Shown: positions 3,280-25,485, numbered from the stretch's first letter. The stretch: 64,000 nt of DNA from Limisphaerales bacterium (GCA_052140285.1 JBKQUF010000006.1:1133-65132); one strand, 5' to 3'. Program-made: numbers and translations. The notes: generated by a model from the letters alone, not told the origin.

Positions 3280-3285
3280 TAACTA

Positions 3286-3314: not shown

Positions 3315-3470
3315 ATCCTATTCCGCGATGAAACGCCATGATTTTTAAAAAAATCCATGGACTTCGGGTTGACCGACATTTTGCGGAAGCATCACTTCTC
3401 GCATTTGTGAATCGGTGGAACGAATTTGGTATTATTGCAGAAACCCTCGTTGGAGACTTGCCACAGAGCA

Positions 3471-4010: not shown

Positions 4011-4421
4011 TCGATACGTCTCCCCCAGTATGCATAACGAATGCCAATACAACGGCTTGTGTGGAAAAAGCTACTTAATGGCGGCGATCCGGCTGGAAGC
4101 GAACTTTCTCCAAATGAATTCGCGCTGAATCCAAGGGCGTTCGACATGAGCTGCAAGACATTCAATTTTTCCCGTAGCAAACCGTCCACGTAATAACGGC
4201 TTCATAAATTTATCGCCCGTCTTTTGTTCAAAACTCCCAAGACACAGTGTCTTAAAATGAGGCAACAAAAAAAATCCGCTTTGAGTCAGAGGACGACAAA
4301 AGAAATACTAAAGGGCGAAGTTGAAAATTAAATCCGCCGGCTGCCAGGCTTTGGCGGGGAATTGAATGCCCCCACATTGGTCTTGTGGTCGCAGTAATGG
4401 CGACTCCCCCCGGTAGTATCT

Positions 4422-4727
4422 TTACGATAACGGCGGCAAATTCGGCCTTTTTTCGGTCGGCTCCGCGCCGAAATGGAAACCGCTCTCATCTTGATATCCC
4501 AAAGGAATTTGATTATTCATGGCAGTCCGCACCCGGATGATGAATCCGGCAAATGGGATTGTTGTCGGGGCCAAACTTACCCACCATTTATACTTTGCGG
4601 CTTCTCGAAGTGTCATGTCGCGTGTTTTGAGCATAGCGTGTGCCAATTCCGACGACGGTGAGGCTGTCGCGGTTTCGCCCGCAAGCAGCCCCTCGGAAGG
4701 CGATTCTTCTTTCTGGCGAAGCGTCAA
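4422..4727 (-). CDS. hypothetical small protein
   Basis: 101-aa ORF alone in a 940-bp gap. A weak hairpin plus T-rich tract lies downstream (about 4334..4358). No motif recognised except the C-terminal 'IPLGYQDESGFHFG'. Confidence 0.25.
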   Translation of the reverse strand: MTLRQKEESPSEGLLAGETATASPSSELAHAMLKTRDMTLREAAKYKWWVSLAPTTIPFAGFIIRVRTAMNNQIPLGYQDESGFHFGAEPTEKRPNLPPLS

Positions 4728-4994
4728 CCGGGCAAAAATGTTTAAACAGAAGGTTACGTTCGGGTTACATTGATGCTGGCGTATTTTTTATAAAATTCAA
4801 AAAAGCACATAATGCTTGCTGTAACGGGGTTTTTAAAATTGATGTGCATGTCATCTAATTGGCCAAGCAAGTCCTCCAACAGGAAGCCTCGTTCCCTATT
4901 TCTAAATACAGTACCCGGCTGGTTAATTTGCAGGTTAAGATTTAGCGACGGCTTGGATTGCGAGCCTTTCAAAGAAATCAGCATTTGAAAGATT

Positions 4995-5843
4995 ATGGAA
5001 ATGAACAAATACGCGTTCAATTTGATTATCGCGGGGGCCACGGCTTGGTCAATTCAAGATCATGCCGTTGCCGCCGATACGACTCAGCTTCAGGTCGATT
5101 ATAACATCGGCAGTTACACCGGTTACAACGCGAATGATTACATTGTGGATTTGCACGGCCCCTACAATGGCGAAGTTTACGATTCCGCATTCAGTGTGAG
5201 CTACGTTAGCGGGGAACCCATTCCTGGCAATTACACCGACCCGTTTACCAGTTTCTGCATGGACGTAACAGCGGACTTGGTGCCGAATGCCGATTGGAAG
5301 GCGATTGCGTATAGCGAGGTTAATACCGCTCAACTGGGATATTCCGATGGCTCGTCCAGTTTGAACCGCGCGGTGAACCTTTTCAACGCTTATGTCAATA
5401 CGGTTAATTTTGACAGCCAGGCTGGTGAGATTAACGGCGGAGCGTTGCAGTTGGCCATCTGGGATGTGCTGTTCGGCAATGATCTGGCTTCGGTCAACAA
5501 CTCATCGTCGTCGTTTTACGCCACCACAGTGGGAGCGGAAAGCTCGGCGGCCATCGCCCAGGCAAACGTTTTTCTGGATTCGTCGGCCAACAATGCCAAT
5601 CAAGTTTATCTGACCACCTATTGGGAGCCGACCGACGCCAACGGGAATCCTACTCCGACATCGAATCAGGGACTGATTGGTCTGGATCCTCCATATCTCG
5701 TGCCGCCGCAGGGGGAAGTCCCGGAGTTAGGCACCGGCATGGCTGCGGTTGCCGCCGGACTTTACGGAATTTATATGATGACCGGTTTTTGCCGCCCAAA
5801 CGGGAGGGGTTCCGCGCGTCGGCGCCAGTTATCAATTCATTGA
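4995..5843 (+). CDS. secreted PEP-CTERM-type protein with a thioester-domain-like Cys/Gln motif pair
   Basis: Has a signal peptide. C-terminal 'VPELGTGMAAVAAGLYGIYMMTGF...RGSARRRQ' is a PEP-like motif plus TM helix plus basic tail. Internal 'TSFCMDV' and 'ALQLAIWDV' resemble the Cys and Gln motifs of TED/TQXA adhesin domains. Confidence 0.65.
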   Translation: MEMNKYAFNLIIAGATAWSIQDHAVAADTTQLQVDYNIGSYTGYNANDYIVDLHGPYNGEVYDSAFSVSYVSGEPIPGNYTDPFTSFCMDVTADLVPNADWKAIAYSEVNTAQLGYSDGSSSLNRAVNLFNAYVNTVNFDSQAGEINGGALQLAIWDVLFGNDLASVNNSSSSFYATTVGAESSAAIAQANVFLDSSANNANQVYLTTYWEPTDANGNPTPTSNQGLIGLDPPYLVPPQGEVPELGTGMAAVAAGLYGIYMMTGFCRPNGRGSARRRQLSIH

Positions 5844-5875
5844 TTTGTCCGATAATATCCGCCCGACGCGGTTTA

Positions 5876-7546
5876 TTATTGGGCGGCGGCTTGGCGCACC
5901 AAGGCCATTTCCTCCGGTAGCAGCCGGGCGGTTTCAGCGAGTTTGAGCGGCTCCCGGGCGGCACTTCGATTACCAGCTTCCGCCTCCACAACGCCGTAAT
6001 AGGCAGCAATGGATGGGTTCTTCAAATACTCCGGTCTGAACGAATTGAAAATTTTCACCGCCTCGTTGGGTTTGGACTGGAGCAGGAGAGAATAGGCGTA
6101 GGTGCAGGCAAAGAACGGATTGTTGGTGGAGCTGTTGTAAGATTCCAAGGCCAGACGTTGTGCTTTGGGCAGATCCGATTTCAAGAGCAGTAAGACGGTG
6201 GCGAGGTTGTTCTTGAGCCGAATGTTGGAAGGATCGGTGGAATACATCTTGTCGAGCAGGTCCGCGATTTCCTGGGTTTTGCCGTCCGCGTAAAACAGGG
6301 CGACTAATTGTTCGTCGGCCCAGGTTTCATTGGGGAATTCTGAGATAATTTCCTGAAGAACCCCGGTTCTTTCCGCAGTCCATCCCCATGAGGCGGTTAC
6401 TTGATTCAGGGCGGACAGACGATCCAACCGGTGCGAGGAGAGCAGCACGGCCCTTTGCCATTCGGAATCAGCAACGAGATTATCGCCGGTGGACCGCAAA
6501 CCCAATGATTCAAGGGAAAGCCGGTAATAATTGAGTTCATCCCAATCCTGGTTTTGAACGACCGCCAGCAACCCATTCCAGTCTTTCAGCGCAATCTGGC
6601 AATCAGTTATACCCATCGGCACAGGCTGGTTGGTTTGGATGTCGTGAGGCAGGCTTTGGAGCCAGCGCAAAGCGACCGCCGGTGATTCATTCACCTGCAG
6701 CCAGTGTCCCAAAGCATAAGCGTGAAATGGAGAGTGAGAGGCGTCTTTTTCGAGAGCCGTCTGCCAGGCTTCAAACTGGGGGCTGTTTGCCTGATGAAGA
6801 ATTTGAAGATGCGCGAGCTTGTCGGCATAACCCGCCTTGGGGTCATTGACGATTTCTTGAGAAAAGTATATCGCGCGGTTGAAGGATTTGTGGGCGGTGG
6901 CATCAACGGCGAGATAGCGGATCGCAGTGAGGTAAAGCGGCGAGTTAGTGGGGATGCTCTGGAGCGTTTGACGAGCCGTGTCCGCCACCGCCTTGTTGGT
7001 TGAAACCAGACGGACTGTGGCAAGATTTAAAACGACGGCGATGTTGGTTGGCTCCAATTGCAGCGCCGCGGAATACTCCTTTTCCGCGTCAATGGGGTCA
7101 TTTAGATTCCAAGCCAGCGCCCCGGCCAGCTTGTGAAATTGAGCCGTGGACCTGAATTTTTCACCCACTCCCCGAAGCGCCTGGATGGTACTGGGTAAAT
7201 TATTCATTTTCAGCGCGGTTTGCGCCCAGGCAAAACGGTATTCGATGTTGTTGGTTTGGAGTTGCGCGGTGCGAATGCGCCAGTTCAAGGCGGCGGGAGC
7301 GCCTTCCTCTTCCAACAGATCAGCCGTCAACTCGTTTGCCTCGACGTTCAAGGGATTGATCGCGATGGCTCGTTGCAGGCACAGACCCGCGTTGTGGAGA
7401 TCCTTTTTCTGAAGATAATGACTGGCTTCCGTGGTCAATTGACGCACGGTAACCTGCCGGTAGGCCTTTCGGCCAAACCAGCCGGCGAAGGCCACCACCG
7501 CCATGACGGCGATGCAAATCAATGCTTTCCTTATGTAACCGCTCAT
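5876..7546 (-). CDS. membrane-anchored TPR repeat protein
   Basis: 556 aa. N-terminal TM helix (ALICIAVMAVVAFAGWF) followed by TPR-like helical repeats throughout. Confidence 0.7.
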   Translation of the reverse strand: MSGYIRKALICIAVMAVVAFAGWFGRKAYRQVTVRQLTTEASHYLQKKDLHNAGLCLQRAIAINPLNVEANELTADLLEEEGAPAALNWRIRTAQLQTNNIEYRFAWAQTALKMNNLPSTIQALRGVGEKFRSTAQFHKLAGALAWNLNDPIDAEKEYSAALQLEPTNIAVVLNLATVRLVSTNKAVADTARQTLQSIPTNSPLYLTAIRYLAVDATAHKSFNRAIYFSQEIVNDPKAGYADKLAHLQILHQANSPQFEAWQTALEKDASHSPFHAYALGHWLQVNESPAVALRWLQSLPHDIQTNQPVPMGITDCQIALKDWNGLLAVVQNQDWDELNYYRLSLESLGLRSTGDNLVADSEWQRAVLLSSHRLDRLSALNQVTASWGWTAERTGVLQEIISEFPNETWADEQLVALFYADGKTQEIADLLDKMYSTDPSNIRLKNNLATVLLLLKSDLPKAQRLALESYNSSTNNPFFACTYAYSLLLQSKPNEAVKIFNSFRPEYLKNPSIAAYYGVVEAEAGNRSAAREPLKLAETARLLPEEMALVRQAAAQ

Positions 7547-7766
7547 ACAACAAAAGATAAAACTGGCATATTATATTACTTACATACTTACATTCCAAAA
7601 CCCGGCTTCAATCAGCACGGTGTTTTGACAGTAACAAAGAGTTTAACCGGGTGGTTGGGAGTCGGGCAAGTGACGTTCATGTAACGACGAAGGCTGCCAT
7701 GTTGTGCCCCCCCAACCGGACAAAAAATTAGCAGCTTGCGCTCCGCTTCTCCGTCCTTTAAGCGGG

Positions 7767-8366
7767 CTATTTCCGGTCGGTTTCGGAGCGGTGTTTTGCC
7801 AGGTTTATCCCTGGTTCCATCCGAATTTCGCGGTTTTGAATTACCAAGCTGCGATCCAGTTCCACCGCAGTTTGCCGGCCCAGAAAATCCAGCAGAATCG
7901 AAACGCGCTGACGCTGCGGAATCACCCTGCTCACCATGGCCTGAAGACCGTGAAAAACGCCGCCGGCAACTTCGACAGCGTCGCCCGGATTGAGGTCTTG
8001 AGAAAGAATCCTGACTTCTTCATCTCCCACCGCGGAACGCAAATCGGCAATCGCTGCGTCCGGAATGGCCGGCCAGCGGTTGCCAAAATGAACCACGTTT
8101 CGGACTCCGGCTACGGCCCGCACCCAACGCAACTTGGAAGCCAAATCAAACTGCGCAAAGAGGTAGCCGGGAAAAAGCGCCTCTGTGACCCATGCCGGGC
8201 CGCGCCGGGTGGACCGACGGTAACGGATTCTGGGCAGGAACACCTCAATTCCCAAGTTTTGCCGGAGTTGGGCCGCGGCAATGTGTTCGTGTTTCGTTTG
8301 GGTTTGCACACAAAACCATTTTGCCGGTTCCTCCCCCGCTATTTCTTGTGCCGGAATTTTTTTCAA
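7767..8366 (-). CDS. NusG/RfaH/UpxY-family transcription antitermination paralog
   Basis: NGN-like 'KWFCVQTQTKHEHIAAAQLRQNLGIEVFLPRI...LFPGYLFAQF' plus KOW-like 'GDAVEVAGGVFHGLQAMV'. Apparent TTG start overlaps the upstream stop (TTGA). Confidence 0.8.
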   Translation of the reverse strand: MKKIPAQEIAGEEPAKWFCVQTQTKHEHIAAAQLRQNLGIEVFLPRIRYRRSTRRGPAWVTEALFPGYLFAQFDLASKLRWVRAVAGVRNVVHFGNRWPAIPDAAIADLRSAVGDEEVRILSQDLNPGDAVEVAGGVFHGLQAMVSRVIPQRQRVSILLDFLGRQTAVELDRSLVIQNREIRMEPGINLAKHRSETDRK

Positions 8367-9034
8367 GCCGCCGCCCGGAATTTTTTGCGCACCACGAGCA
8401 ACAGGGCACCCAGCGCCAACAACCCTGCGAACTTGCCCATTGAAGCAGGCTCGGGAACTGTAGAATAGTTGTAAGTGACCGCCAAAGTTCCGCCGCCGTT
8501 GTCATACCAAGCGACAAATAGCGGAGGGCCGGCACTAATCGACGAAATTGCGGTGGCCGAACTGTTCACGGTTAAATCATAGGTTCCCGTTCCAGTAAAC
8601 CCGGCGGGACCGAGTACGATTGAAGAAGGCGTAAGGGCGAAAGAACTGAACGGCAGTGACCCGGTATTCAAGCCGGGATTGGCCGTAAAATTGTCCTGAG
8701 CGAGAGTCTCACTACTGGACCAACTGGCGCTCAGACCCAAAGCGGAATTGACCAGGGTTCCGTTGGGATCGCTGACTTGAGCGTAAGCGACTGTCTGCGG
8801 CGCGCTTCCGATATTATAAACGCTATAACCAATATCCCCAACGACCGGAGTGAGTATTAAATCAATGCTGTTCAGTGTTCCAAGAGCAGCATTGAATTTG
8901 GCAAAATCGAACGCAAAACTGGTTGCCGCCGTGGGCAGAACACTCGCCGTTTCAGTATAAAACGCTGCCTGCAATTGCGACGCCATCCCGAAGGCGGTCA
9001 TCAGCATTGCCAGCCAGATTTTAAATTTTTTCAT
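8363..9034 (-). CDS. PEP-CTERM sorting-domain secreted protein
   Basis: Signal peptide 'MKKFKIWLAMLMTAFGMASQLQA'. Canonical C-terminus 'VPEPASMGKFAGLLALGALLLVVRKKFR'. Confidence 0.85.
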   Translation of the reverse strand: MKKFKIWLAMLMTAFGMASQLQAAFYTETASVLPTAATSFAFDFAKFNAALGTLNSIDLILTPVVGDIGYSVYNIGSAPQTVAYAQVSDPNGTLVNSALGLSASWSSSETLAQDNFTANPGLNTGSLPFSSFALTPSSIVLGPAGFTGTGTYDLTVNSSATAISSISAGPPLFVAWYDNGGGTLAVTYNYSTVPEPASMGKFAGLLALGALLLVVRKKFRAAA

Positions 9035-9340
9035 ATTTTCACCCTTGGTGACGACTTCTGAAAAGCATCAATCAGTCCAAGAGCCAAATGTACTATCTTC
9101 ATTTTCAACCACATTATTTTAACATGAATATTAAGAGTAAACAACACTAATGCTTTTGAAAAATATCCATAATAAGGACAAGCAATTCCTTTTAAGTGAC
9201 ACGGAGTTGAAATTTTACAAAGATAAACCAGATATGGCGGAGCGACGGTTTCCAGCCGGGATTGGCAGTCCGAAAGTCCCAAGCCGACACGTCGGCGCCC
9301 CGGTCTGATGGCGTTTCATGCGCAATATGAAATTTTCGGG

Positions 9341-10060
9341 TTAGTAATTAAACGTTTTTGTTGGGACGTAAATGATATCAAATGGCTGCAAGTAGAACGG
9401 CGTTTTTTCCTTTCCCTCAAGCACCCGTTTGAGGTTGATGTGATAGGTTTCCTGCCGGCCATTTTTGACCCGCAATACGGTCACGTCCGACAATTTGGCG
9501 CGGCTGGGGTCCCAGCCGCCCGCCGTCATCACCGCCTCGATCACCATGAGGGGTCGGTCCATTTCCACCGGCCCGGGCCGCAGCACCGCTCCGGACACAT
9601 AAACCTGGGACTCGGATGATAACAGTTTCGCACTGATCACATCGCCCGCATCCACCGTCTTATACGCGTTGGTCAGGACCTGCTCAAGTTCAGTCAGCGT
9701 CAGTCCCGAAGCCTTCACCGGGCCAACCATGTCCAGGTTCAACCGGCCATCCAATGCGATCTTCTGAACGGTGTCGAAGTTGGTGGAACCTTCAAATGTA
9801 ATCGACACAACGTCACCCTCATGCAGTTCGTTGGTTGAGTAATTCTCCGCTCCCGGATTTGGGGGCGGTGGCGTCACAACCCCGAAGGGGAGGCCGCCGT
9901 TGGGAAAATTTTGCCATGGTTGGCAACCGACAGCGACCAACGCCAGAGCGGCGCCAAGCGCCAACGCCAGGCACCGCCGAAAAACGGACGGCGTCCGATC
10001 TGCCGTTGCCATTCCGGCGCCACGGTTTTCTGAATTCATAAGCATAAAATCATTTTCCAA
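9341..10060 (-). CDS. polysaccharide export protein (Wza/Poly_export + SLBB), lipoprotein
   Basis: Lipobox 'LVAVGC'. Also 'LHEGDVVSITF...LDGRLNLDMVGPVKASGLTLTELEQ' and the SLBB-like 'VYVSGAVLRPGPVEM'. Start codon is ambiguous, with several in-frame Met. Confidence 0.8.
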   Translation of the reverse strand: MENDFMLMNSENRGAGMATADRTPSVFRRCLALALGAALALVAVGCQPWQNFPNGGLPFGVVTPPPPNPGAENYSTNELHEGDVVSITFEGSTNFDTVQKIALDGRLNLDMVGPVKASGLTLTELEQVLTNAYKTVDAGDVISAKLLSSESQVYVSGAVLRPGPVEMDRPLMVIEAVMTAGGWDPSRAKLSDVTVLRVKNGRQETYHINLKRVLEGKEKTPFYLQPFDIIYVPTKTFNY

Positions 10061-10167
10061 CCGCCACTTCTAATCGCCTTTTGGCCCGCCAGCAAGCGCC
10101 GAAACATCGTTGCCGCCGAATTCACCATTTTGTAACCAAATCCATTTTATCAAAAGTTCATTTTTAA

Positions 10168-11517
10168 TTAGAAAGCATAATTTAACTGAAAGGACACGTT
10201 ATTGTCAGAATAATCGCGGTCGGCCAGGTTCGAGTTACGAAGCGAGTGGGTATAACTCAAACTTCCCTCCAGATGATCGGTGAATTGCCATGAGGCTTGC
10301 AGACCACCACTGTACTCCTGGTACTGTTCGATGGTTTCAATGGGAAAGATGCCGAACAAGTAACCTTCAACAAATGGCTGCTGCCCATCGACATACGACC
10401 CGGACACCCCCACGTTGATTCGTCGGGTAAGCTGCCAGTTGGCTGAATAACCGGTCGTGAATTGCTCCACGTAACCGCTGCCCTGGTTTATTCCCGGCTG
10501 CACGCTGTGGTTGATTTGCAGGCTTTGCGAGATAAAATCCGTGAGTTGCTGGCTGACCGCAAGGCTGACATAATAAGAGTTGAGCGTTGAATTTCCCCCG
10601 GCCGTTGACGGCGAACTGAAGGTGGAAATCGCCGGACCGCCGCTCAAGGTCAGGTGCAGTGACGACAATATCTGCCATTGGAGGTACCCGCCCACACTGT
10701 AACTGGCAGTGTTGCCCTGGCTGCTGACTTGATAGGACGTCTGGCTGGCGCTGGCTTGAATGCCCGCCTGCGTGGATTCGGCAAAACGCCAGCCGGCCTG
10801 GCCAAAGAAATTGTCCGAGGAACTGTTCAGGTAATCGTTCGAGCTGTCTGAAAAATTAATCGAGCGGCCATAGCTCGCCTGGAAGGTCCATTTTCCCGGG
10901 TCCCATTCCGCCTGTGCGCCAATCGTGTTGGCGAATTGCGGCAAAGTGGCCACGTTGGCGAGGGCGGGTTCCGTTTTGACCTGGCGGGAATAGCTGAACT
11001 GGTCGTAAAACGTGAAAATGACGTCGTCCACCGACAGGGCGTACGTCAGGGCGGAATCCGGTGTGATTTCCAGTCCGTTGTTGGCTGTCTCTTTCAAGTA
11101 ATGAAGATAGCCGACACTGGTCCCGAATTGAAGCTGGGAGTGGTCCGTGGCCGGCCAGTTGAATCCCAGGTTGACGCCGCCCCGCGAGATGACATCGGAT
11201 TCGACGTCCGTTTGGGATTCGTTGACGTTGTCGTCATAAGCCACCCCGGCATATGCGCCCAAGGTGAGTTGTACCGGACCCAGATGCGGCCGGTCCGGTG
11301 GCACGAAGGTTGGATTGGATTGCGCGGCGATGGCGTTTTCCAGCGAGGTTTCACTGAGCAACGCTTCCTGTCCTTTCGCGAGGCACAACGGGAACGCCGC
11401 GCCCAAGGACAGCAGTCCCATACGCAAGCTTGCGGACCAGGCGGCGGTTCTGAATCTTCCCGCGGCGGCTCCGCCTTTCTTAAAAGGAAAATTCAATGGA
11501 ACCGGCTTGGCGCTCAC
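10168..11517 (-). CDS. outer-membrane beta-barrel protein (EpsL-like role possible)
   Basis: 449 aa with a signal peptide, alternating beta-strand pattern and aromatic C-terminus '...VSFQLNYAF'. Lies directly upstream of the Wza-like gene on the minus strand. Confidence 0.6.
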   Translation of the reverse strand: MSAKPVPLNFPFKKGGAAAGRFRTAAWSASLRMGLLSLGAAFPLCLAKGQEALLSETSLENAIAAQSNPTFVPPDRPHLGPVQLTLGAYAGVAYDDNVNESQTDVESDVISRGGVNLGFNWPATDHSQLQFGTSVGYLHYLKETANNGLEITPDSALTYALSVDDVIFTFYDQFSYSRQVKTEPALANVATLPQFANTIGAQAEWDPGKWTFQASYGRSINFSDSSNDYLNSSSDNFFGQAGWRFAESTQAGIQASASQTSYQVSSQGNTASYSVGGYLQWQILSSLHLTLSGGPAISTFSSPSTAGGNSTLNSYYVSLAVSQQLTDFISQSLQINHSVQPGINQGSGYVEQFTTGYSANWQLTRRINVGVSGSYVDGQQPFVEGYLFGIFPIETIEQYQEYSGGLQASWQFTDHLEGSLSYTHSLRNSNLADRDYSDNNVSFQLNYAF

Positions 11518-11637
11518 GACGGAATGCTAACTGGTTGGCGGCCGAGGCACACGTTACGAAAGGATGACGAAGGGGAAAAGCAGAAAACAGAGATTAGGGC
11601 ATTTTCGTAAATACTGTAGTCACCAAACGGGCGATGA

Positions 11638-11678
11638 GTGTTCGGCGGGACGCCGAACACGGCGACCGTGACGGTCGC
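11638..11678. repeat. two tandem perfect hairpins (REP-like, family E)
   Basis: GTGTTCGGCG-gga-CGCCGAACAC followed by GCGACCG-tga-CGGTCGC, located just 3' of the porin stop. No T-run follows. Confidence 0.5.
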
Positions 11679-11689
11679 GCTCCCCGCTC

Positions 11690-13369
11690 TCAGAACCTCA
11701 GCGTCAGATCCACCTGGTAAATGTCAAAGCTGTTAATGGGATTGATTTGGGGAATGTCCCCCGTGTCACTCCCGCCGGTTCCCAGCAGATTGTTGATACG
11801 GCTGGCGTGGCCGTAACGGAAGGTGGCGATGAGGTTGCCGGTCAAACCATAGGCGGCGGCCACGTAAATGCCCTGCAGGTTTTCCGCTCCCTCGAAGAAG
11901 TCCACGTCCAGGAGGTTGGGGTCCAGCGAGTATTGTTCAATGTGCTGCCAATAGGTTCTGACTTCCCAGGCGTGCCTCTGCGAAGTCGTGGCATTGACCA
12001 GCCCTAAAGCGTCGCGGCTGCCGATGGCAAAGCCGATTTGATAGGCTTTGACATCCGACGTTTGCGCCGGAAACGAATGCGGAATGCCAATGGTGCTGCT
12101 GGGCGGCAATCGAGTCGCCAAAACAGTTTGATACGCTGTCGCGGCATCCCGTGCGCGCGCTGCGCCATCCAGATTGTAGGATGCGTCGCCAAAGACCCGC
12201 GCGTCGAAGCGACTGATTTTGAAATTGAATTCAAAGGGAACTTCCACCACAAACAGATGATCCAAGCCGACTTGATTGAAGGGATAACCGATACTGCCCG
12301 CCCCGGCGATGCCGTTATAGAGTCCGGGAACGTATCCGCTGCTACCCGAGGCGTAGCCGTTGGCGGAGCCGCCGGCGTAATAATACGCGCCTTCACCGAC
12401 ATAGGGATCGCCATAATAAGGGGCATAAGCCAACGCATTTCCGGAGCTGGACTGGAGTCCGATATACTGGTATAATGTGGCTGCAGCCTTCGCTGACATG
12501 TTGGTGTTGATGTGGTAGTTAAACCCTCCTTGCCATGTGAGCATGAAGATATTGTCCTCCTTCTGGCCGCCTCCAGCTTCTAATACACCTGAAGTTCCTG
12601 GAATGTCCAAGCCTGCGGAAGCCTCACTGGGATTCATGTCCGCGTAAAGAAATTGTCCGAATGTGGCAAACAGGTCCGCCTGTCCGACCGTATGTTTGAA
12701 ATTTTCCGCAAAGCCTTCCGGGCTGATGTTGCCGCTCCAAACCATGGGCGTGGTGTAGAGTGGATTGGGCATCTTGCCCACGGTTAAATCCAGCCAGTCC
12801 CCCCAACGCCAGCCAAAATACAGCTGGCCAATGGTCATGGTCGCCTCGGATTTGCCAAACGGCCCATAATACGGCGATTCACTCGCGGAGGAGCCAAACG
12901 TGACAGAAGGCGAACGCGGATTGTTGCCGGTCTCAAGCCGGAGACCGTAATAAAAGTTGTCGTACAAGTCGCCCCGCACGCCGAACCGCACCGCGTAGCG
13001 ATAACGCTGGAGATCAATCCGGTTGCCGGCGGGGTCTTCTTCCGAACGGTCCTCGTAGCGCAGACGCGCGTCCCCATACAGCTGCATTTTTTTGAACCCA
13101 TTGCTCATTGCCCATCTGGATGGCGGCATCGCCGGCATTTGCATTTGATTGGAGCGCATCGTGGCGGCTTCGGCCTCCACCTGCTCGGCCTCCTGTTGCG
13201 TCACGAAACCTTTTTGCACGAACAAATCCAGCAACGGGTCGGCGGAATTGGATGCTGCTGGAGCATTGGTCGGATCCTGGCCCCAAGCCCGCATTCCCAT
13301 GGCCAGTGCCGCAATCAGGAAAATCTTCGCCGCTTGAAATGTCAGGCGCCGGGCCTTCGTGAATGTCAT
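11690..13369 (-). CDS. putative outer-membrane porin
   Basis: Signal peptide from the ATG at 13369 (MTFTKARRLTFQAAKIFLIAALAMGMRAWG). N-terminal helical 'LLDLFVQKGFVTQQEAEQVEAE', then beta-rich sequence ending '...VDLTLRF'. An alternative start at 13414 is possible. Confidence 0.6.
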   Translation of the reverse strand: MTFTKARRLTFQAAKIFLIAALAMGMRAWGQDPTNAPAASNSADPLLDLFVQKGFVTQQEAEQVEAEAATMRSNQMQMPAMPPSRWAMSNGFKKMQLYGDARLRYEDRSEEDPAGNRIDLQRYRYAVRFGVRGDLYDNFYYGLRLETGNNPRSPSVTFGSSASESPYYGPFGKSEATMTIGQLYFGWRWGDWLDLTVGKMPNPLYTTPMVWSGNISPEGFAENFKHTVGQADLFATFGQFLYADMNPSEASAGLDIPGTSGVLEAGGGQKEDNIFMLTWQGGFNYHINTNMSAKAAATLYQYIGLQSSSGNALAYAPYYGDPYVGEGAYYYAGGSANGYASGSSGYVPGLYNGIAGAGSIGYPFNQVGLDHLFVVEVPFEFNFKISRFDARVFGDASYNLDGAARARDAATAYQTVLATRLPPSSTIGIPHSFPAQTSDVKAYQIGFAIGSRDALGLVNATTSQRHAWEVRTYWQHIEQYSLDPNLLDVDFFEGAENLQGIYVAAAYGLTGNLIATFRYGHASRINNLLGTGGSDTGDIPQINPINSFDIYQVDLTLRF

Positions 13370-13412
13370 CGGGCGCAAATGCTGGCCATTGAATGCGACG
13401 GGTTTATGTCGC

Positions 13413-13434
13413 ATCGGTTACAAATCGGTTACAA
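13413..13434 (-). promoter_or_regulatory. perfect 11-bp tandem direct repeat (ATCGGTTACAA x2) upstream of the porin gene
   Basis: Read directly. On the minus strand it reads TTGTAACCGAT x2, and the second TGTAAC is followed by N16 then CGTC. Confidence 0.3.
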
Positions 13435-13475
13435 ACAAATTTTACCCAATACCAAGGAATTAAAGAAAATGAGGT

Positions 13476-13594
13476 TTTTCGACACCAAGGAAACAAAGGG
13501 AACGAAGATTTTCCCGGGCGACGTGCTTGTCGGAGAGCGACGCTAAATTGGACGACTTTTTGGCTTCTTCCTTGTCTTCGTTTGCTTCTGTTAA
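13476..13594. repeat. REP-like element family D
   Basis: 'gacaccaaggaaacaaagggaacgaag' and its inverse-flavoured partner 'cttcttccttgtcttcgtttgcttc'. A related copy lies at 14261..14313. Confidence 0.5.
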
Positions 13595-13609
13595 ATAAAT
13601 GGGCGTTTG

Positions 13610-14053
13610 TTATGCCTGCTGGCTTTCCGCCGCAGGCGCCGGGGCGGGCCGGGCCGGTGGCGGCGCGTGAATGACCGGCACGGGATAGCGCAGCTTCAAC
13701 ACCTCGTCCACCAGCGCTTCCACGAAGTACGTTCCGGCGGTCTTGAATTCAAGGTTGCCGAAAACCGTAATGGTGGTGGCGTGCTGCGCCGGGTCGCGCA
13801 GTTCGAATTTCGTTTCGCCCTTGTTGAGCACGGTGCCGCCGTCGGGCGCCATCAGCCGGATGGTTTGAATGAACTGGCCGACGCCCGCCGTCCAGCGGTT
13901 GAAGACACAAAGACGCGCGGCGACGACCGGCAGTTTTGGCACGCGAATGAGATTGACGACCCCGATGAGGAAGAAATTGCCGTTGGCTTCCTGGCGGATT
14001 TCCTCGCACAGAAGCGAGGCCTGCAAATCGGGTAAAATTCGGGTGGCGTTCAT
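13610..14053 (-). CDS. hypothetical protein (beta-rich, Pro/Ala-rich tail)
   Basis: Likely start MNATRILPDLQ at 14053. No motif recognised. Bracketed by family D repeats. Confidence 0.5.
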   Translation of the reverse strand: MNATRILPDLQASLLCEEIRQEANGNFFLIGVVNLIRVPKLPVVAARLCVFNRWTAGVGQFIQTIRLMAPDGGTVLNKGETKFELRDPAQHATTITVFGNLEFKTAGTYFVEALVDEVLKLRYPVPVIHAPPPARPAPAPAAESQQA

Positions 14054-14201
14054 GGTGTTGAAATCATTCTCGTCCTCATCCTCATTTCTCCATTGGAGGA
14101 AAAATTGCAGGCGGGATGCCGTTGCCACGATGGGCATGGTTTGTTACGCCAACATGCGCGGAAGGCGACAATTCGGTTACGAAGTAATAAAAAGTATAAA
14201 A

Positions 14202-14350: not shown

Positions 14351-15535
14351 TCACCACTGCAACGCGCGATAAAACCGCTGTGGGGCCGTGGCGGGGTCTG
14401 TCAATTGCAGGTAGCCGCCCGTGCCCGCCTGCAGTGGCAGGGAGAGCCAGAGGCTGTCGGTGAGGGAATTCTTGTATTCCAATTGGTAGGTTCTTCCGTT
14501 GCGCGTGGGCAGGGTTGCGCTGAACCCATTCGTTCCCAACGCCGGGTTGGTGAGCGCCGCCCGGATCGCCGGCGGAGCGGAGCCAACCAGCGCCAGGCTG
14601 TTCACGTCTCCGGCGGCGATCTGCTCCACATTGGTCAGATTCACCGGCACATTCGTGTCACCTTCGGTGTCCAGTCCCCAAGCCACCACGGTCCCGTTGC
14701 TTTTTAGCGCCAGGCTGTGCCAGGCGCCGGCCGCCACCGCCACCACGTTGGTGAGACCGGCGGGGACATTGGTCTGGCCGTAATTATTCAGCCCCCAGGC
14801 GAACACGGTTCCGTTGGCCTGCAATGCCAGGTTGTGCCAGCCCCCCGCCGCAATCGCCACCACGTTGCTCAAACCGGTGGGGATGTTCGTCTCGCCGTAA
14901 CCCTCGTTTTCACCCCATGCAAACAACGTGCCGTCCGACTTCAACACCAGATTATGGTAGCCGCCGGCCGCGATGGCCACCACGTTGGACAAGCCCTCCG
15001 GCACGGTCCCTTCGTAATCCGGCGAATTGTCTTCCCCGCCCCAGGCGGCTAGTGTGCCGTCGGTTTTCAGTGCCAGGCTATGGTAAAACCCGCACGCCAC
15101 CGCTACCGCATTGGCCAAATTGTCCGGCACGTCCGTCGCGCCCCAGGTATCGTCTCCCGTCGCCGCCACCGTGCCGTTCGTCATCAGCCCCAGGCTGTGC
15201 AGGTCCCCGCAGGCCACCGCCAGATAATTGGCCGCCGGCAGATCAAGCTGCCCCAGCGTGTCATCGCCCCAGCCTTCCACCGTGCCATCGGCCTTCAAGG
15301 CCAGGCTGTGACGCCAGCCGCCCGCCACCTCCGTGGCGTTCGTCAAATCCGCCGGCACGATGGATTGGCCCCAGTCATTGATTGAACTGGTGTCCACAAA
15401 CGTTCCCGCCCCCCACGCCACCACCCGCGTCTGGCCCCGGCCGGGCTGAACGAAGGCAAAGAGGCACAGGCATGGGAGCATTGCTCTCAAAAACAATCCA
15501 GCGGTAAACCCGGCTATGCGCTCTGTGTTTTTCAT
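14351..15535 (-). CDS. secreted RCC1-repeat beta-propeller protein with a C-terminal 'RFYR' beta-domain
   Basis: Seven or so repeats of 'VVAIAAGGxHxLALKxDGTxxAWG'. Signal peptide from the ATG at 15535 (MKNTERIAGFTAGLFLRAMLPCLCLFAFV). Ends '...TYQLEYKNSLTDSLWLSL...PQRFYRALQW'. The first 88 codons of the ORF track entry lie in REP repeats and are rejected. Confidence 0.8.
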   Translation of the reverse strand: MKNTERIAGFTAGLFLRAMLPCLCLFAFVQPGRGQTRVVAWGAGTFVDTSSINDWGQSIVPADLTNATEVAGGWRHSLALKADGTVEGWGDDTLGQLDLPAANYLAVACGDLHSLGLMTNGTVAATGDDTWGATDVPDNLANAVAVACGFYHSLALKTDGTLAAWGGEDNSPDYEGTVPEGLSNVVAIAAGGYHNLVLKSDGTLFAWGENEGYGETNIPTGLSNVVAIAAGGWHNLALQANGTVFAWGLNNYGQTNVPAGLTNVVAVAAGAWHSLALKSNGTVVAWGLDTEGDTNVPVNLTNVEQIAAGDVNSLALVGSAPPAIRAALTNPALGTNGFSATLPTRNGRTYQLEYKNSLTDSLWLSLPLQAGTGGYLQLTDPATAPQRFYRALQW

Positions 15536-16202: not shown

Positions 16203-17012
16203 ATGATTATACAAAAATTAACCAAAGCGGGGGCGCTGGTCGCCGGCGCATTGCTGGCCTGCCAGGCGGCGCACGCGGCAGGCATCACGGCCAACGACCT
16301 GTATATGGGTTTCCAAAACAGCGGAGCGAGTTCCGATTACATTGTCAACCTCGGCGCGGCCTCCAGCATTCTTGGACAGGATACCGTCGTCAATTTGAGC
16401 GGCGACTTCACCGAGAGCGACATTACCGCCATCTTGGGCGGTGCTGGTACTTCCTATGCCGGCACAATCGGCGCTAACAACGCCGGTGGCGTCCCGTCGG
16501 TTGCCAACCCGGCGGATGCATATGGCACGGTGTTGCGCACCAGCAACCTTGGAAATAACGCTGTGTCCGGTTCCGTTCAGCCCACTGCAATCAGCAGTGG
16601 TTCGGATATCACTGCCTACAATGACCTCGGAACCCTGAACGCGCCAGCTACTGCGGGTGGCCAACTGGATTCCGGCAAAACGTTTACAGCCGATGTTCCG
16701 TCCAGCGGCGCAGCTGCTGGCACTTACAATAGCGCCACCGGGTTGATCCCGAACTCGGCGGTCACCACTTCCAGCGCCCTTATCGAAGACCTTTGGTACA
16801 CTGCTGATCCCAGCACCGGACGCACCGACACCAGCAAACCGTGGGTCTATGAGGGCTATTTCACCATTGACTTGACTGGTTCCAGTCCTGACGTGACCTT
16901 CACCAGCGACTTGGTGACCGCCGTTCCCGAGCCGACCACTTACGGCCTCATGGCTGGCGCTGGCCTGCTGCTCCTGAGCCTTCGCCGCCAACTCGGTGTC
17001 AAGCTGGCTTAA
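16203..17012 (+). CDS. PEP-CTERM sorting-domain secreted protein (paralog P1)
   Basis: Signal peptide, passenger of about 230 aa, then 'VPEPTTYGLMAGAGLLLLSLRRQ'. The passenger is homologous to 20149..21102. Confidence 0.85.
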   Translation: MIIQKLTKAGALVAGALLACQAAHAAGITANDLYMGFQNSGASSDYIVNLGAASSILGQDTVVNLSGDFTESDITAILGGAGTSYAGTIGANNAGGVPSVANPADAYGTVLRTSNLGNNAVSGSVQPTAISSGSDITAYNDLGTLNAPATAGGQLDSGKTFTADVPSSGAAAGTYNSATGLIPNSAVTTSSALIEDLWYTADPSTGRTDTSKPWVYEGYFTIDLTGSSPDVTFTSDLVTAVPEPTTYGLMAGAGLLLLSLRRQLGVKLA

Positions 17013-17076: not shown

Positions 17077-18483
17077 ATGAAAATTAACAGTATATTAACC
17101 ACGGCGCTTCTGGCGCTGGGAGTTGTCTCCCAGGCTGGCGCGACCAATCCCTCCGCTCCGACGATTTATTATACCGGATCCACGGCGTTCCGTTCAACGA
17201 TTTACACCTCGTTGGCCGATAACACCGGCGATAGCGGCGCCGTGTTCGCTGCCGGCACCCTCCAGTTTGGCACCTGGGGCAACAGTGCCCCTGCCAGCGC
17301 CAACTACATGGTGTTTTACGGCGAATTAAAAGGCACCTCCACCTACGTCTATATCAACGCGGCGTGGAGCGGTTCGGAAGCGGGCATCGCCTCGGCCTGC
17401 AACACCAACTTGGTGAACACCCGCCGCGACAATTCGACGGTAACCCTGGCCGGCTCGCCGGAGACGTGGGTGGATGACACCACCTGCACCCTGGCGGCGG
17501 CGCCCGCAGGCAGCGTCAATGCCGGGAGTCCGGGAGCCAATGGTTCTCCCGCCAACGGCGCGCAACTCGAAGCGGCCCCCCACGGCTCGGATTTGGCCCA
17601 GGCAGACACGTCCCAGGCAGTTTCCTGGACGCCCAATGCGGGGAGTGGTCCCACGGATTTGAAGGACTACGGCTCGCAAGGCGTGGTCACCTTCGTGATC
17701 TCGAAGAATGTGAACCCCGCTCCCACCACGGATTGGAGCTCAGTCACCAACATCAGCCTTCCCCAGCTTGTTACATTGTTAAATCTGGGTTCGGTGCAGT
17801 CTTATTTCCTCTCCGGCGATCCGAATGGCGCTGAGTATGTCTATGCGGTTGGCCGCAACCTCGGTTCGGGCACGCGCATGAACGTTCTGTCCGACAGCAC
17901 TTACGGTGGCCAGAAAACAGTGGACCAATTCTCCATTGGTTACGGCGTTGACAACCGCGACCCGGGACAAACCCCTGCCACGCTCATCCTTCAGAATGAA
18001 GGGGACAACGGCTATGAAAGCGGCGGCGGCGTGGCCAAGGCGCTGGCCGACACAGGCGCCAGCGACACCGCTGGCAGTTGCCAGCAGGCGGACCCGATTC
18101 ACGGCGGCACCGGTTGGTTTGCCATCGGCTATCTCAGCCCGTCCGACGCCAACAGCACCGGCAATAACGGCGGTCAACCTACTCCGCTGCATCCCGGCCC
18201 CGCCAACTGGATCACCGTGAGCGGATACCCCTCGAACAACAACAACATCGAGAACGGCCAATGGTGGTACTGGGGCCATGAACATCTGTATGGCCGCTAC
18301 AACATCGCCGGCACCCTCGCGGACCAGGTGGGAGGCGTCCTCTTCACCGCCGTGTCGGATGAAATTGTAAATCTGGGCCTCGGCGTTACCCCGGCCGGAA
18401 ATGACGCTGCCATTCCCTACAGCCTGATGTTTGCCAAAAAGGGCAGCGACACGGCTTTCCCGATTCCTGGCGCTGGCGAATAG
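17077..18483 (+). CDS. secreted protein, possibly periplasmic-binding-protein (PstS/PBP_like_2)-like fold
   Basis: 468 aa with a signal peptide. 'IYYTGSTAFRS' and 'GRNLGSGTR' are reminiscent of phosphate-binding PBP motifs. The assignment is weak. Confidence 0.35.
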   Translation: MKINSILTTALLALGVVSQAGATNPSAPTIYYTGSTAFRSTIYTSLADNTGDSGAVFAAGTLQFGTWGNSAPASANYMVFYGELKGTSTYVYINAAWSGSEAGIASACNTNLVNTRRDNSTVTLAGSPETWVDDTTCTLAAAPAGSVNAGSPGANGSPANGAQLEAAPHGSDLAQADTSQAVSWTPNAGSGPTDLKDYGSQGVVTFVISKNVNPAPTTDWSSVTNISLPQLVTLLNLGSVQSYFLSGDPNGAEYVYAVGRNLGSGTRMNVLSDSTYGGQKTVDQFSIGYGVDNRDPGQTPATLILQNEGDNGYESGGGVAKALADTGASDTAGSCQQADPIHGGTGWFAIGYLSPSDANSTGNNGGQPTPLHPGPANWITVSGYPSNNNNIENGQWWYWGHEHLYGRYNIAGTLADQVGGVLFTAVSDEIVNLGLGVTPAGNDAAIPYSLMFAKKGSDTAFPIPGAGE

Positions 18484-18731: not shown

Positions 18732-18823
18732 TTTTGTCATCAAAATGTCACATTCCCCGGCCCCATCCGTGATTGTATTTTCCCGAAATCCAAGTTAGTC
18801 TGGGCATTGCGATTGAGGCGAAT

Positions 18824-19696
18824 ATGAAGACGACGTTATCAATTTCCATTGGATTAAACCTGGCTTTGGCGGGCGGGTTGATTTTCTTCGTCGCAAACCA
18901 CCGCAACCAACCAACCATTTCCGCGCCGGTCGTGTCTGAAAGCACACCGCCACCGCCCGCGGCGCCGGCCCCGCTGGCTCCAGTGCCGCCGCAAACCGAG
19001 CCGCCGCCGTTTCATTGGAGCCAGCTTCTGCCGGCAAATAATTACCGGGCTTACCTTGCCAATCTGCGTGCCAGCGGCTGTCCGGAAACGACCATTGATG
19101 ACATTGTCCGGGGCGACACCGACCGGGCGTTTGCCTACGAGCGCGCCCAATTGGGGCTGAGTGAATCCGGCAACGGCCCGTGGTCGGAGTGGCGGGAGAA
19201 CCAACTGATTGCCAGCCTGCTGGGGGAACCGTCGGCGAATCAAACGTCCGCCCCGGCCCAAATCGCGGAAAACCCGACGCCGGAAAATAATGGAGAAGGC
19301 GCTGTTGAATCTGCTTCGGCCCAAAGCATGGCGGCAACACCCTTGTTCCTGCAATATACGAACTGGGATGCTTTGGGCTTCAATGCCGGCGAACAGGCCG
19401 CCATTGCGCGGGTGCGGCAGCAGTATCAGAACCAAGTCGCCAGCCAGAACCAAAGTTCCAGCGGCGCGGCAAACCAGAATTCCGATGGCGCGGCAGGCCA
19501 GAATTCAACCCCCGCCGGCCCGAACATCGGCGCGACGGTCGCGGCGAATCAATCGCAAACCGCGTTGCAGAATGCCAACGACCAATTGCGTGGTCTGCTG
19601 GGTGGCCAGGATTACGAGGCTTATGTACAACAGGAGTATTATTTGTGGTTCCAGCGGCAGTCGGGGTCAATAAATCCCCGCGCGTTTTCGCCGTAA
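18824..19696 (+). CDS. hypothetical single-pass membrane protein (Pro-rich linker, Gln/Asn-rich region)
   Basis: Start MKTTLSISIGLNLALAGGLIFFV at 18824. No catalytic motif recognised. Confidence 0.55.
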   Translation: MKTTLSISIGLNLALAGGLIFFVANHRNQPTISAPVVSESTPPPPAAPAPLAPVPPQTEPPPFHWSQLLPANNYRAYLANLRASGCPETTIDDIVRGDTDRAFAYERAQLGLSESGNGPWSEWRENQLIASLLGEPSANQTSAPAQIAENPTPENNGEGAVESASAQSMAATPLFLQYTNWDALGFNAGEQAAIARVRQQYQNQVASQNQSSSGAANQNSDGAAGQNSTPAGPNIGATVAANQSQTALQNANDQLRGLLGGQDYEAYVQQEYYLWFQRQSGSINPRAFSP

Positions 19697-19962: not shown

Positions 19963-20148
19963 TTTCAAAGTCTTCAAACAGGGGTTTAATGTCCTTAAAC
20001 TTGTTATAAAAGCGGGCCGGCTCGCGATAAAGTACCTTGTAAAATGGTGATGGCCATAATACGCTTTGGCGCGCATACCAATTTACGCTTGGAGAGCCAT
20101 TCGCTCAACGTCCGGCGGAGCAACAAAAACACAAACATTAAAAAAGCA

Positions 20149-21102
20149 ATGAAGAATTTAATAGCAGCGGCCATCATTTTTGGCGGGGCAATTCTGGCCT
20201 CCTCACCAGTGTTCGGAGCGGTGAATATCGCGCCAAATGTCCTGTATCTGGGGTTTCAAAACAGCGCGGCGGCCGACGATTACATTATCAACCTCGGCGC
20301 GGCAACCAATTTGGTCGGCGGCTCCACAGTGATAACATTGAGCAGCGACCTCACGAAGAGCGACATTACCGCCGTACTGGGCGGTGCTGGAACTTCCTAT
20401 GCCGGCGTGATCGGCGCTAATAACGCCGGTGGCGTCCCGTCGGTTGCCAACCCGGCGGATGCTTATGGCACGGAGTTGCGCAACAGCAACATTGGAAATC
20501 CGGCTGTGGCCGGTTCCTCTGCCCCCACTGCTATTAGCAGTGGTTCGGATATCGTTGCCTACAATGCCCTCGGGAACTTGAACGCGCCAGCTACTGTGGG
20601 GACTGGCGTTCTGGATTCCGGCAAAACGTGGACAGCGGATGTTCCGTCCAGCGGCACACCTTCTGGTACTTATAATGGCTCAACCGGGTTGAACCCGAAC
20701 TCGGCGGTCACCACTTCCAGCGTCCTTTACGACGACCTTTGGTACACTGCCGACCCCGATAGCGGACGCACCGATACCAGCAAACCGTGGACATACCAGG
20801 GCTATTTCACGATTGACTTAACCGGCAGCAGCCCGAAGCTGACCTTTACGCCTACGAACGCCCCGGCAACGACGGTGCCGAAGCCGGTTATTGTGTTGGT
20901 CGCCAAGCTGGCCGGCACGGTCACGTTGATTTCGACCAATGCGTCGCCCACGCATACGTATCAATTGCAATACACCGCCAGTTTGTCGCCCATCGCCTGG
21001 ACGAGCGTTGGCAGCGCGGTCACTGCCGGCGGCACGATAGTAACCAATACCGACACCACCGCGACGCCCGCGCAACGGTTCTATCAGATTCAGGCGCAAT
21101 AA
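20149..21102 (+). CDS. secreted paralog P2 of the 16203 passenger, with a C-terminal 'RFYQ' beta-domain instead of PEP-CTERM
   Basis: Start MKNLIAAAIIFGG at 20149 with a signal peptide. The passenger aligns with P1 along its length. The tail is 'VPKPVIVLVAKLAG...THTYQLQYTASLSPIAWTSV...AQRFYQIQAQ'. Confidence 0.8.
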   Translation: MKNLIAAAIIFGGAILASSPVFGAVNIAPNVLYLGFQNSAAADDYIINLGAATNLVGGSTVITLSSDLTKSDITAVLGGAGTSYAGVIGANNAGGVPSVANPADAYGTELRNSNIGNPAVAGSSAPTAISSGSDIVAYNALGNLNAPATVGTGVLDSGKTWTADVPSSGTPSGTYNGSTGLNPNSAVTTSSVLYDDLWYTADPDSGRTDTSKPWTYQGYFTIDLTGSSPKLTFTPTNAPATTVPKPVIVLVAKLAGTVTLISTNASPTHTYQLQYTASLSPIAWTSVGSAVTAGGTIVTNTDTTATPAQRFYQIQAQ

Positions 21103-21374: not shown

Positions 21375-21436
21375 CAACGTGGAGGAACCAAATTTTACCG
21401 TTTTCTTTGCGATATTCATCTTGCAAACTTAAGCGC

Positions 21437-21883
21437 ATGCCGTCCACGCACTTGAGCCTGCATTTCCACCTTGTCTTCAGCACGAAGGACCGGCATCCAT
21501 TTATCGCCGACACATGGCGTCCGCGTTTGCACGAATATTTTGGAGGTCTGATTCGCGCGGCGGAGGGGATTCTGGAAGCGATTGGGGGAACGGCGGATCA
21601 TGTTCATTTGCTCGTTGGTTTGCGGGCGACCCACGCGCTGGCGACATTCGTGCAGGACATCAAGCAAACTTCGTCGCGCTGGATTCACGAGAGCATCAAT
21701 GTAAAAAATTTCGCATGGCAACCGGGCTACAGCGCCTTTACGGTAAGCGCGTCCAATTGCGGCGCAGTAGAGGAATATATTGCGAACCAGGCGGAGCATC
21801 ACCGGTTAAAATCATTTCAGGAGGAATATGTGGCGTTTCTCCAGAAACATGGCGTGGAATACAATGAAAATTTTTTGTGGTGA
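21437..21883 (+). CDS. REP-associated tyrosine transposase (IS200/IS605 TnpA Y1 family, RAYT)
   Basis: 'HLSLHFHLVFSTKDR', HUH motif 'ADHVHLLV', and catalytic Tyr context 'EEYIANQAEHH'. Likely start MPSTHL at 21437. Confidence 0.85.
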   Translation: MPSTHLSLHFHLVFSTKDRHPFIADTWRPRLHEYFGGLIRAAEGILEAIGGTADHVHLLVGLRATHALATFVQDIKQTSSRWIHESINVKNFAWQPGYSAFTVSASNCGAVEEYIANQAEHHRLKSFQEEYVAFLQKHGVEYNENFLW

Positions 21884-25315: not shown

Positions 25316-25485
25316 GTAGCGGCAGACATCCCTGTTTGCCGTGGAGCCGGGGCTTCCAGCCCGGCCGATAAAACGCTCCGCAGTATGAAAGCGTGATTAA
25401 ATCAAAAAACAATCCGCAGTGCGGGAACTGGTTCCGGGCGGCAGGGATGCACGCCCTCTACGTCAGGCAGGATGCCTGACGCTAC
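25316..25485. repeat. REP-like element family C
   Basis: Hairpin units 'ctacgtcaggcaggatgcctgacgctac', 'gccggggcttccagcccggc' and 'gtagcggcagacatccctgtttgccg'. Same family as 43097..43242. Confidence 0.7.

Follow-up and report, generated by a model that had tools for sequence, protein, structure and literature searches.

A C-terminal beta-sandwich module on unrelated exported proteins in an exosortase locus of a Limisphaerales bacterium

The stretch of Limisphaerales bacterium DNA analysed here, a locus of soil Verrucomicrobia (GCA_052140285.1 JBKQUF010000006.1:1133-65132; 64,000 nucleotides, hereafter the window) encodes three exported proteins, each of which is closed at its C-terminus by a copy of one homologous module of about 65 residues. 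The gene at 14351-15535 on the minus strand specifies a 394-residue RCC1 propeller (Pfam RCC1_2, 1.8e-53, together with WD40_RLD). On inspection and by a heuristic the N-terminus of this protein, MKNTERIAGFTAGLFLRAMLPCLCLFAFVQPGRG, resembles a signal peptide, and its tail, translated on the minus strand, reads ...TYQLEYKNSLTDSLWLSL...PQRFYRALQW. The module copy, of the subtype termed A below, lies at 14354-14563 and is followed by the stop codon at 14351-14353; with a profile made from database copies only, the envelope of the hidden Markov model (HMM) covers residues 429-498 of the open reading frame (ORF) at 71-78 bits. Orthologs with the same tail are present in the related loci L001-L009 and L025. 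A small protein of 179 residues, encoded at 3471-4010 on the minus strand, consists of a signal peptide, a canonical FN3 domain (Pfam fn3, residues 32-105, 1.5e-09, a match that leaves the tail uncovered) and a type B copy of the module at 3474-3677, which on minus-strand translation reads ...YQYVIQASTNMVNWVSL...NRRFYRTVYLP before the stop codon at 3471-3473. An identical product is recorded in NCBI GCA_052915925.1. The third protein, P2, is encoded on the plus strand at 20044-21102 (352 residues as called, the probable true start being Met36 at 20149) and combines a signal peptide and an alpha/beta passenger with a type A copy at 20881-21099, which is translated on the plus strand as ...TYQLQYTASLSPIAWTSV...AQRFYQIQAQ and precedes the stop codon at 21100-21102. 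No copies other than these three turned up when the window was scanned in six frames by regular expression and HMM.

An earlier reading of the DNA, made from the sequence alone, had described a recurrent C-terminal module on three unrelated secreted proteins. Translation recovers the three tails where that sequence-only reading had placed them without naming strands, the RCC1 and FN3 genes being on the minus and P2 on the plus strand. The passengers are indeed unrelated, as Pfam returns RCC1_2/WD40_RLD for the first, fn3 for the second and no match for P2, and export is borne out in so far as the N-terminus of each resembles a Sec signal peptide on inspection and by the heuristic. The consensus pattern that had been given reproduces the tails apart from one detail: it calls for three or four residues before the tryptophan, where the FN3 tail has two (M-V-N-W).

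Pairwise comparison links only two of the tails. Smith-Waterman alignment against 2,000 shuffles yields z=9.2 for the RCC1 and P2 tails, the only significant pair, and insignificant values of 0.7 and 1.3 for the FN3 tail with the other two. A profile built exclusively from database copies gives 77.5 bits for the RCC1 tail, 76.6 for the FN3 tail and 56.2 for the P2 tail (range 53.7-56.2), and the best of about 300 shuffles per tail attain 7.9-12.3 bits, those of the FN3 tail not exceeding 8.7. Since the genuine tails score so far above their shuffles, all three are true members of the module family, and the similarity that had been proposed is significant by profile (56-78 bits versus at most 12.3). 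An exhaustive HMMER search of 1.84 billion representatives with a profile of the three tails matched 3,414 clusters at E<=0.001; tightening the threshold to E<=1e-10 left 166. In an alignment of 47 diverse copies two subtypes are discernible, type A with the pattern Y.LQYK.SL.D..W (RCC1, P2) and type B with Y.V.ASTNLV.W..V.TN.APF.F.D....QRFYR, which is well populated and includes the FN3 tail. Both share an invariant tryptophan and an almost invariant R-F-Y-R; R64, R67 and W40 are conserved to at least 90% across very divergent copies.

The AlphaFold2 (AF2) model of the RCC1 copy, calculated from the same 47-copy alignment, is all-beta (predicted local distance difference test 94.1, predicted template modelling score 0.79) and arranges six main strands within 71 residues as a beta-sandwich. 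When the model was compared with the PDB using Foldseek, the top matches were almost only FN3 domains (IL-12R beta1, TENCON, neogenin), with template modelling scores of 0.45-0.63 and probabilities up to 0.99 but E>=0.07. Motif correspondence, with the tryptophan in the second strand (in many tandem-array copies), Y-x-Y in the third and a tyrosine in the last, points to an FN3-like fold that would lack the seventh (G) strand. Pfam fn3 itself matches one of the 47 copies (E=0.03), and descent of the module from the FN3 domain present in the same proteins was rejected at the level of sequence (hhalign probability 0.2%). A profile search of PDB sequences gave borderline matches only, namely the Fn3-like module 3mpc of C. 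thermocellum, the Fn3 region of CtXyl5A (5g56) and a single hairpin of CBM32 discoidin domains. A scan of the 47 copies against Pfam and NCBIfam at E<=1 yielded no family that covers the module, just isolated weak matches to unrelated families at E>=0.007. We found no published description of the module, and database sources name its carriers by their passengers only (RCC1 family, Ig, cadherin-like, cohesin, lysophospholipase); word-indexed protein searches with one tail and with the 47-copy profile returned only fragments, all labelled 'hypothetical protein'. The earlier remark that no assigned function is known for the module is thus corroborated by Pfam, NCBIfam, the literature and source annotations alike, none of which assigns it to a family either. 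It is well supported that we are dealing with a distinct, uncatalogued domain of about 60-70 residues, a six-stranded beta-sandwich, FN3-like in its predicted topology, with the conserved RFYR-V/A-x-x as its last strand.

The module is attached to a broad range of passengers, comprising RCC1 propellers, FN3, Ig, LamG, cadherin-like, cohesin, F5/8C, glycoside hydrolase (GH) families GH9 and GH5 and NHL/lyase domains. By a crude heuristic, signal-peptide-like N-termini are found in 53% of the carriers compared with 17% of control ORFs. The module is very abundant in Verrucomicrobiota, to which the named carriers overwhelmingly belong, with additions from a Pontiellaceae (Kiritimatiellota) and a Hydrogenedentota metagenome-assembled genome (MAG), a taxonomic picture that is biased toward close relatives by the tighter alignment used for the genome scan; where a bin carries the label of another phylum, as a few do, this may reflect faulty binning. 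The presence of glycoside hydrolases among the carriers raises the question whether the module is a carbohydrate-binding module (CBM) that brings enzymes and adhesins onto external plant or microbial polysaccharides. Tandem repetition, typical of CBMs, conserved aromatic residues and arginines, the faint relationship to cellulosomal Fn3-like modules and a weak profile match to CBM32/discoidin domains (2rv9, 4zxe; E ~1.4e-3) agree with such a role. The latter match, however, is confined to one 49-residue hairpin (Y.iqvS.d..W) and does not extend over the full jelly-roll; a module of 60-70 residues and six strands stands against 136-138 residues for discoidin/CBM32 domains, and F5_F8_type_C_2 is faintly matched by one of the 47 copies. 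Moreover, most carriers are not enzymes but RCC1 propellers, Ig, FN3 and cadherin-like proteins and members of the P2 family, and the alternation with PEP-CTERM described below points to the cell's own surface rather than to external substrates. Taken together, we regard binding of external polysaccharides as quite improbable.

The position of the module was followed in three samples: the window with 24 genome loci (L001-L024), nearly all from Verrucomicrobiae MAGs; the top 150 database representatives, 146 of which are confirmed carriers; and 51 further metagenome loci with 44 complete ORFs. It lies 3-8 residues from the end in 44/46 carrier ORFs of the first sample and is terminal in 43 of the 44 complete ORFs of the third, 42 of these being single-copy proteins. 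The 146 database carriers divide into 69 with a single terminal copy, one with a single internal copy, 66 with arrays of 2-8 copies of which the last is terminal, and ten with arrays but without a terminal copy; in other words, tandem arrays of 2-8 copies occur in 76, and 135 proteins end in the module whereas 11 do not. Pooling the three samples, 222 of 236 proteins (94%) end 0-10 residues past a module. Counting copies instead of proteins changes the picture, as 143 internal copies face 135 terminal ones in the top-150 set. The strictly C-terminal placement that had been claimed therefore holds, nearly without exception, for proteins and fails for copies, and internal occurrences as frequent as terminal ones, which had been named as speaking against a tag, are found in this set when copies are counted but not when proteins are.

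Internal copies look much like terminal ones. The motif R[FY][FY][RKQ] is kept in 114 of the 143 internal and 125 of the 135 terminal copies of the top-150 set, and the two kinds are barely separable within arrays (HMM score difference +1.9 versus -0.6 bits, p ~0.03), a difference so marginal that terminal copies were rejected as a specialised class. In terminal copies the chain ends 3-5 residues after RFYR, and it is about there that a proline-rich linker begins after each internal copy of an array. In one database carrier (P0110) module copies are interspersed with LamG and Ig domains ahead of a C-terminal GDSL lipase domain, and in a protein encoded at 6012-8051 of locus L019 the module lies upstream of a GH5 cellulase domain. 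Because of the arrays, the RFYR-bearing internal copies and these two cases with an enzyme domain downstream, RFYR is to be seen as the final strand of a fold and not as a terminus-specific tag. In L019 the module is found in four of five consecutive same-strand genes (3056-14197, plus strand; module genes at 3071-5905, 6012-8051, 8132-10678 and 11768-14200), a run that resembles a secreted-enzyme gene cluster.

These properties would also be compatible with an inert Ig/FN3-type element that serves as spacer, stalk or cap, takes no part in targeting or binding, and owes its C-terminal bias to recombination at 3'-ends and tandem duplication. The FN3-like fold, the beads-on-a-string arrays with proline-rich linkers, the close resemblance of terminal and internal copies, the copies upstream of GH5 and GDSL lipase domains and the existence of small carriers made up of nothing but a signal peptide, FN3 and modules (e.g. 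P0004) are all in keeping with this idea. A spacer should, on the other hand, turn up in inter-domain positions no less often than at the end, which is difficult to reconcile with the 94% of carriers that end in the module, and the strong conservation of R64, R67 and W40 likewise speaks against it. A third objection comes from the P2 family, where the module is kept as a specific alternative to a sorting signal despite gene conversion of the passengers, and on balance we consider the spacer unlikely.

The P2 family deserves a closer look. A gene at 16203-17012 on the plus strand encodes a paralog of P2 that carries PEP-CTERM (Pfam PEP-CTERM 2.8e-05; TIGR02595). The passengers of the two proteins are 69% identical up to VPKP in P2 and VPEP in the paralog (BLASTP E=2e-112); beyond this point the paralog continues with a transmembrane helix and a basic cluster, and P2 with the module. 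A full-length AF2 model of P2 predicts a signal peptide, an alpha/beta passenger and, at residues 247-316, the module as a beta domain of its own; the passenger has a novel alpha/beta structure without a solved structural relative and no Pfam match. A search with the P2 passenger retrieved 95 homologs, 50 ending in the module, 43 ending in PEP-CTERM and two fragments, and no third type of C-terminal end was present among them. Both forms occur in the window, L003-L007 and L025, the PEP-CTERM form alone in L001 and L008, and the module form alone in L026/L027. Judged by these sequences, P2 is a clear case of a passenger family in which the module replaces PEP-CTERM. In distant genomes, passengers from the same genome are 68-82% identical to each other compared with 47-64% for the best module-type ortholog across genomes, and an orthologous signal is retained only between very close genomes. 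This pattern suggests that the paralogs evolve in concert by gene conversion that is bounded at the VP[E/K]P junction. As the passengers appear to have been homogenised repeatedly while their ends were kept distinct, it can be argued that selection acts on the C-terminal ends themselves.

Two ORFs of unknown function separate the P2-family paralogs of the window, one for a secreted protein of 468 residues without family match (17077-18483, plus strand) and one for a protein of 307 residues with an N-terminal transmembrane segment and a Pro/Gln-rich region (18773-19696, plus strand). Conserved counterparts of similar size, 488 and 305 residues, occupy the same position between the paralogs of L025. 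The gene for an IS200-type Y1 transposase (21407-21883, plus strand) lies directly 3' of the P2 gene and breaks the synteny with L025.

The window as a whole represents a conserved PEP-CTERM/exosortase-exopolysaccharide (EPS) locus such as Haft et al. have described (PMC1569441). It is bracketed by two exosortase genes. The first (1708-3279, minus strand) encodes a 523-residue protein of the EpsH family (Pfam Exosortase_EpsH 2.8e-37, residues 24-285) that extends beyond the EpsH core and fits no specific Xrt type, the XrtD/XrtA-like NCBIfam matches remaining below their type-specific cut-offs and the exo_archaeo signature passing. This enzyme presumably processes the PEP-CTERM proteins of the locus; for the module it is a matter of context only. 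The second exosortase gene (62859-64000, plus strand) runs off the end of the window, and its product is 36% identical to the first (BLASTP 3.8e-64). A further PEP-CTERM protein with a choice-of-anchor E domain is encoded at 8363-9034 on the minus strand, and an EpsL-like outer-membrane protein and a Porin_5 are also present. The Porin_5 gene is separated from that of the RCC1-module protein by a gene for a DUF6941 protein (13610-14137, minus strand), which the syntenic segment of L025 lacks. A two-partner secretion system occupies 25482-30884, 30953-33250 and 33305-36073 on the minus strand and comprises TpsA (1,800 residues, FHA N-terminal domain), TpsB (POTRA_2/ShlB) and a large TPR gene between the two; L025 shows synteny for the TpsA/TpsB pair, and TpsA is found in L026/L027 as well. 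The cluster at 37339-61270 on the plus strand is devoted to polysaccharide biosynthesis and export (Bac_transf priming transferase, Wzz/tyrosine-kinase-like protein, NosD-like beta-helix protein, Wzm/Wzt) and contains one GT11 and five GT4 glycosyltransferases. A relative with only 41% identity in P2 retains synteny over the segment that runs from porin to AraC.

The FN3-protein gene sits directly upstream of the first exosortase gene on the same strand, with a gap of 191 bp in which no terminator-like site was found. A functional tie between the two genes is nevertheless unsupported, since exosortase-like ORFs are near only four of 48 FN3-type loci, and a homolog with four modules is located among housekeeping genes. 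The FN3-passenger loci with exosortase-like ORFs in their vicinity are L036, L041/L042 and L044. FN3-passenger homologs without the module in L041, L042, L044 and L052 carry long low-complexity tails rich in proline, threonine and serine.

Could the module be a signal for passage across the outer membrane, which a translocon not yet described would recognise in the periplasm and which might afterwards be removed or modified, in analogy to the C-terminal domains (CTDs) of type IX secretion system (T9SS) substrates? Several features recall these domains: the module is a small beta-sandwich, it sits at the very C-terminus of many unrelated cargoes of the Sec pathway, its chain stops right after the last strand, it alternates with PEP-CTERM in one family, and it is unannotated and largely restricted to one phylum. 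A signal that is read once would, however, not be expected in arrays of 2-8 copies or to leave RFYR-bearing copies in internal positions, let alone upstream of GDSL lipase or GH5 domains. T9SS CTD models (PF18962 Por_Secre_tail, TIGR04183 and related) matched neither the three full proteins nor the 47 copies, no T9SS CTD was among the top 50 Foldseek matches in the PDB, and six main strands are predicted for the module instead of 3+4. No T9SS component (SprA/Sov, PorV, PorU, PorK-N) occurs among the annotated neighbours in the 64-kb window and the 20-kb loci, and no candidate translocon gene is consistently adjacent to module genes in the loci examined. The proposed check for accompanying secretion or sortase genes identified no module-specific machinery in these loci. 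All in all, an export signal of this type appears distinctly improbable.

The sequence-only reading had favoured a sorting or attachment tag. What stands of this proposal is the C-terminal location on diverse exported passengers, the occupation of the PEP-CTERM position in the P2 family and the plausibility of attachment. What does not stand is the likeness to PEP-CTERM and LPXTG signals, which is contradicted by the folded sandwich, the arrays of up to eight copies and the internal cases: the module contains no PEP motif with transmembrane helix and basic cluster, having neither a hydrophobic helix nor an arginine cluster, and an LPXTG-like motif with hydrophobic segment and basic tail is absent from all three tails, as are matches to Pfam or NCBIfam families of this type. 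An attachment or docking role is plausible, a cleaved sorting signal being the weaker reading.

We therefore tentatively propose, with a probability of roughly 0.4, that the module mediates non-covalent docking or retention at the cell surface or in the EPS matrix as an alternative to exosortase-dependent anchoring. Module-bearing proteins would be exported via Sec and fold, the module would then bind a surface component, be it a glycan or a receptor protein, and the passenger would thereby be retained, either on the cell envelope or within the exopolysaccharide matrix of the same cell. Tandem copies could provide added avidity or reach, and docking as an alternative to PEP-CTERM/exosortase anchoring would account for the maintenance of one passenger family in two versions per genome. 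We favour docking because it fits the arrays, the occasional internal copies, the diversity of exported passengers and the PEP-CTERM alternation within an EPS locus.

Several observations weigh against this proposal. The proposed function is deduced solely from domain architecture and the behaviour of one passenger family, and no binding partner, be it a ligand or the gene of a receptor, emerged from the analysis. Alternation with PEP-CTERM is confined to the P2 family in the loci examined and had to be rejected as a general rule; it is not seen in the FN3-passenger family, the module-less homologs of which end in Pro/Thr-rich tails, nor for any other passenger in the window and L001-L024. The adjacency of FN3-module and exosortase genes in the window is not general either, and the few proteins with catalytic domains after the module are what a plain inter-domain spacer would produce. 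Finally, the near-absolute stop 3-5 residues after RFYR is stricter than docking alone needs, so that a free C-terminus may be part of what is recognised.

A bolder variant, which we deem rather doubtful as a whole, is that the module marks proteins for a surface-display pathway, not described so far, of Verrucomicrobiota and phyla related to them. The free edge of the C-terminal strand, RFYR-x3-5-COOH, would then be read by a dedicated receptor in the outer membrane or matrix or by a translocon, and the two forms of the P2 family would be anchored and docked subunits of one surface assembly. If true, the pathway would be a functional counterpart of the T9SS CTD or of cohesin-dockerin pairing, operating in parallel to PEP-CTERM/exosortase. 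Verrucomicrobiota are major degraders of polysaccharides in soil and aquatic habitats, and the way in which their very large secretomes are displayed or released is poorly understood. An uncatalogued module that closes thousands of exported proteins and is able to replace PEP-CTERM offers itself as a ready marker for secretome prediction and merits a curated family, so that carriers need not be named by their passengers alone. The finding would gain greatly in significance should a receptor or translocon that partners the module come to light.

Among established systems, the CTDs of T9SS substrates come to mind first. They have been described as small C-terminal beta-sandwiches on many unrelated Sec-exported cargoes (PMC4804311, PMC11285876), with a compact Ig-like 3+4 seven-strand architecture (PMC11285876). 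The module resembles these domains of Bacteroidota as a small beta-sandwich at the extreme C-terminus of unrelated Sec-exported cargoes within largely one phylum. It differs by its six predicted main strands, its tandem arrays, its occasional internal position and the lack of any HMM match; it is also at home in Verrucomicrobiota, where T9SS has not been described. With PEP-CTERM (PF07589, TIGR02595) the module shares the location directly after VP[E/K]P, the same passenger family and the same exosortase/EPS locus as well as its occurrence in many copies on diverse exported proteins of Verrucomicrobia. PEP-CTERM consists of a short PEP motif, a transmembrane helix and a basic cluster. The module, by contrast, folds as a soluble domain and has no transmembrane segment, which rules it out as an exosortase substrate of the type that has been described.

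FN3 and the bacterial Fn3-like (X) modules (3mpc, 5g56) have in common with the module the tryptophan, the Tyr-x-Tyr strand, a tyrosine-containing late strand and tandem arrangement with linkers; the module is shorter (about 65 compared with about 90 residues), is predicted to possess one strand fewer than the seven-strand sandwich (ABE + C'CFG) of FN3 and is strongly C-terminal, unlike ordinary FN3 domains. A strong positional bias is likewise a property of BACON, a small Ig-like accessory domain of secreted glycan-related proteins in Bacteroidota, the function of which is debated between binding and spacing. BACON differs in being mostly N-terminal and curated, the module being C-terminal and uncurated. 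Dockerins are built from helical calcium-binding repeats, and SLH domains are helical too. In spite of unrelated folds, they provide our working analogy: they share with the module a size of about 60-70 residues, a non-catalytic nature, a mostly C-terminal, sometimes repeated and occasionally internal position and diverse secreted passengers. Dockerin and SLH domains dock non-covalently at the cell surface, whereas the module has no known cognate receptor; by analogy it would work most like these C-terminal anchoring modules, though unrelated to them. The novelty thus lies in a domain family, very large and uncurated, that takes its place among the C-terminal beta-sandwich and anchoring modules already known.

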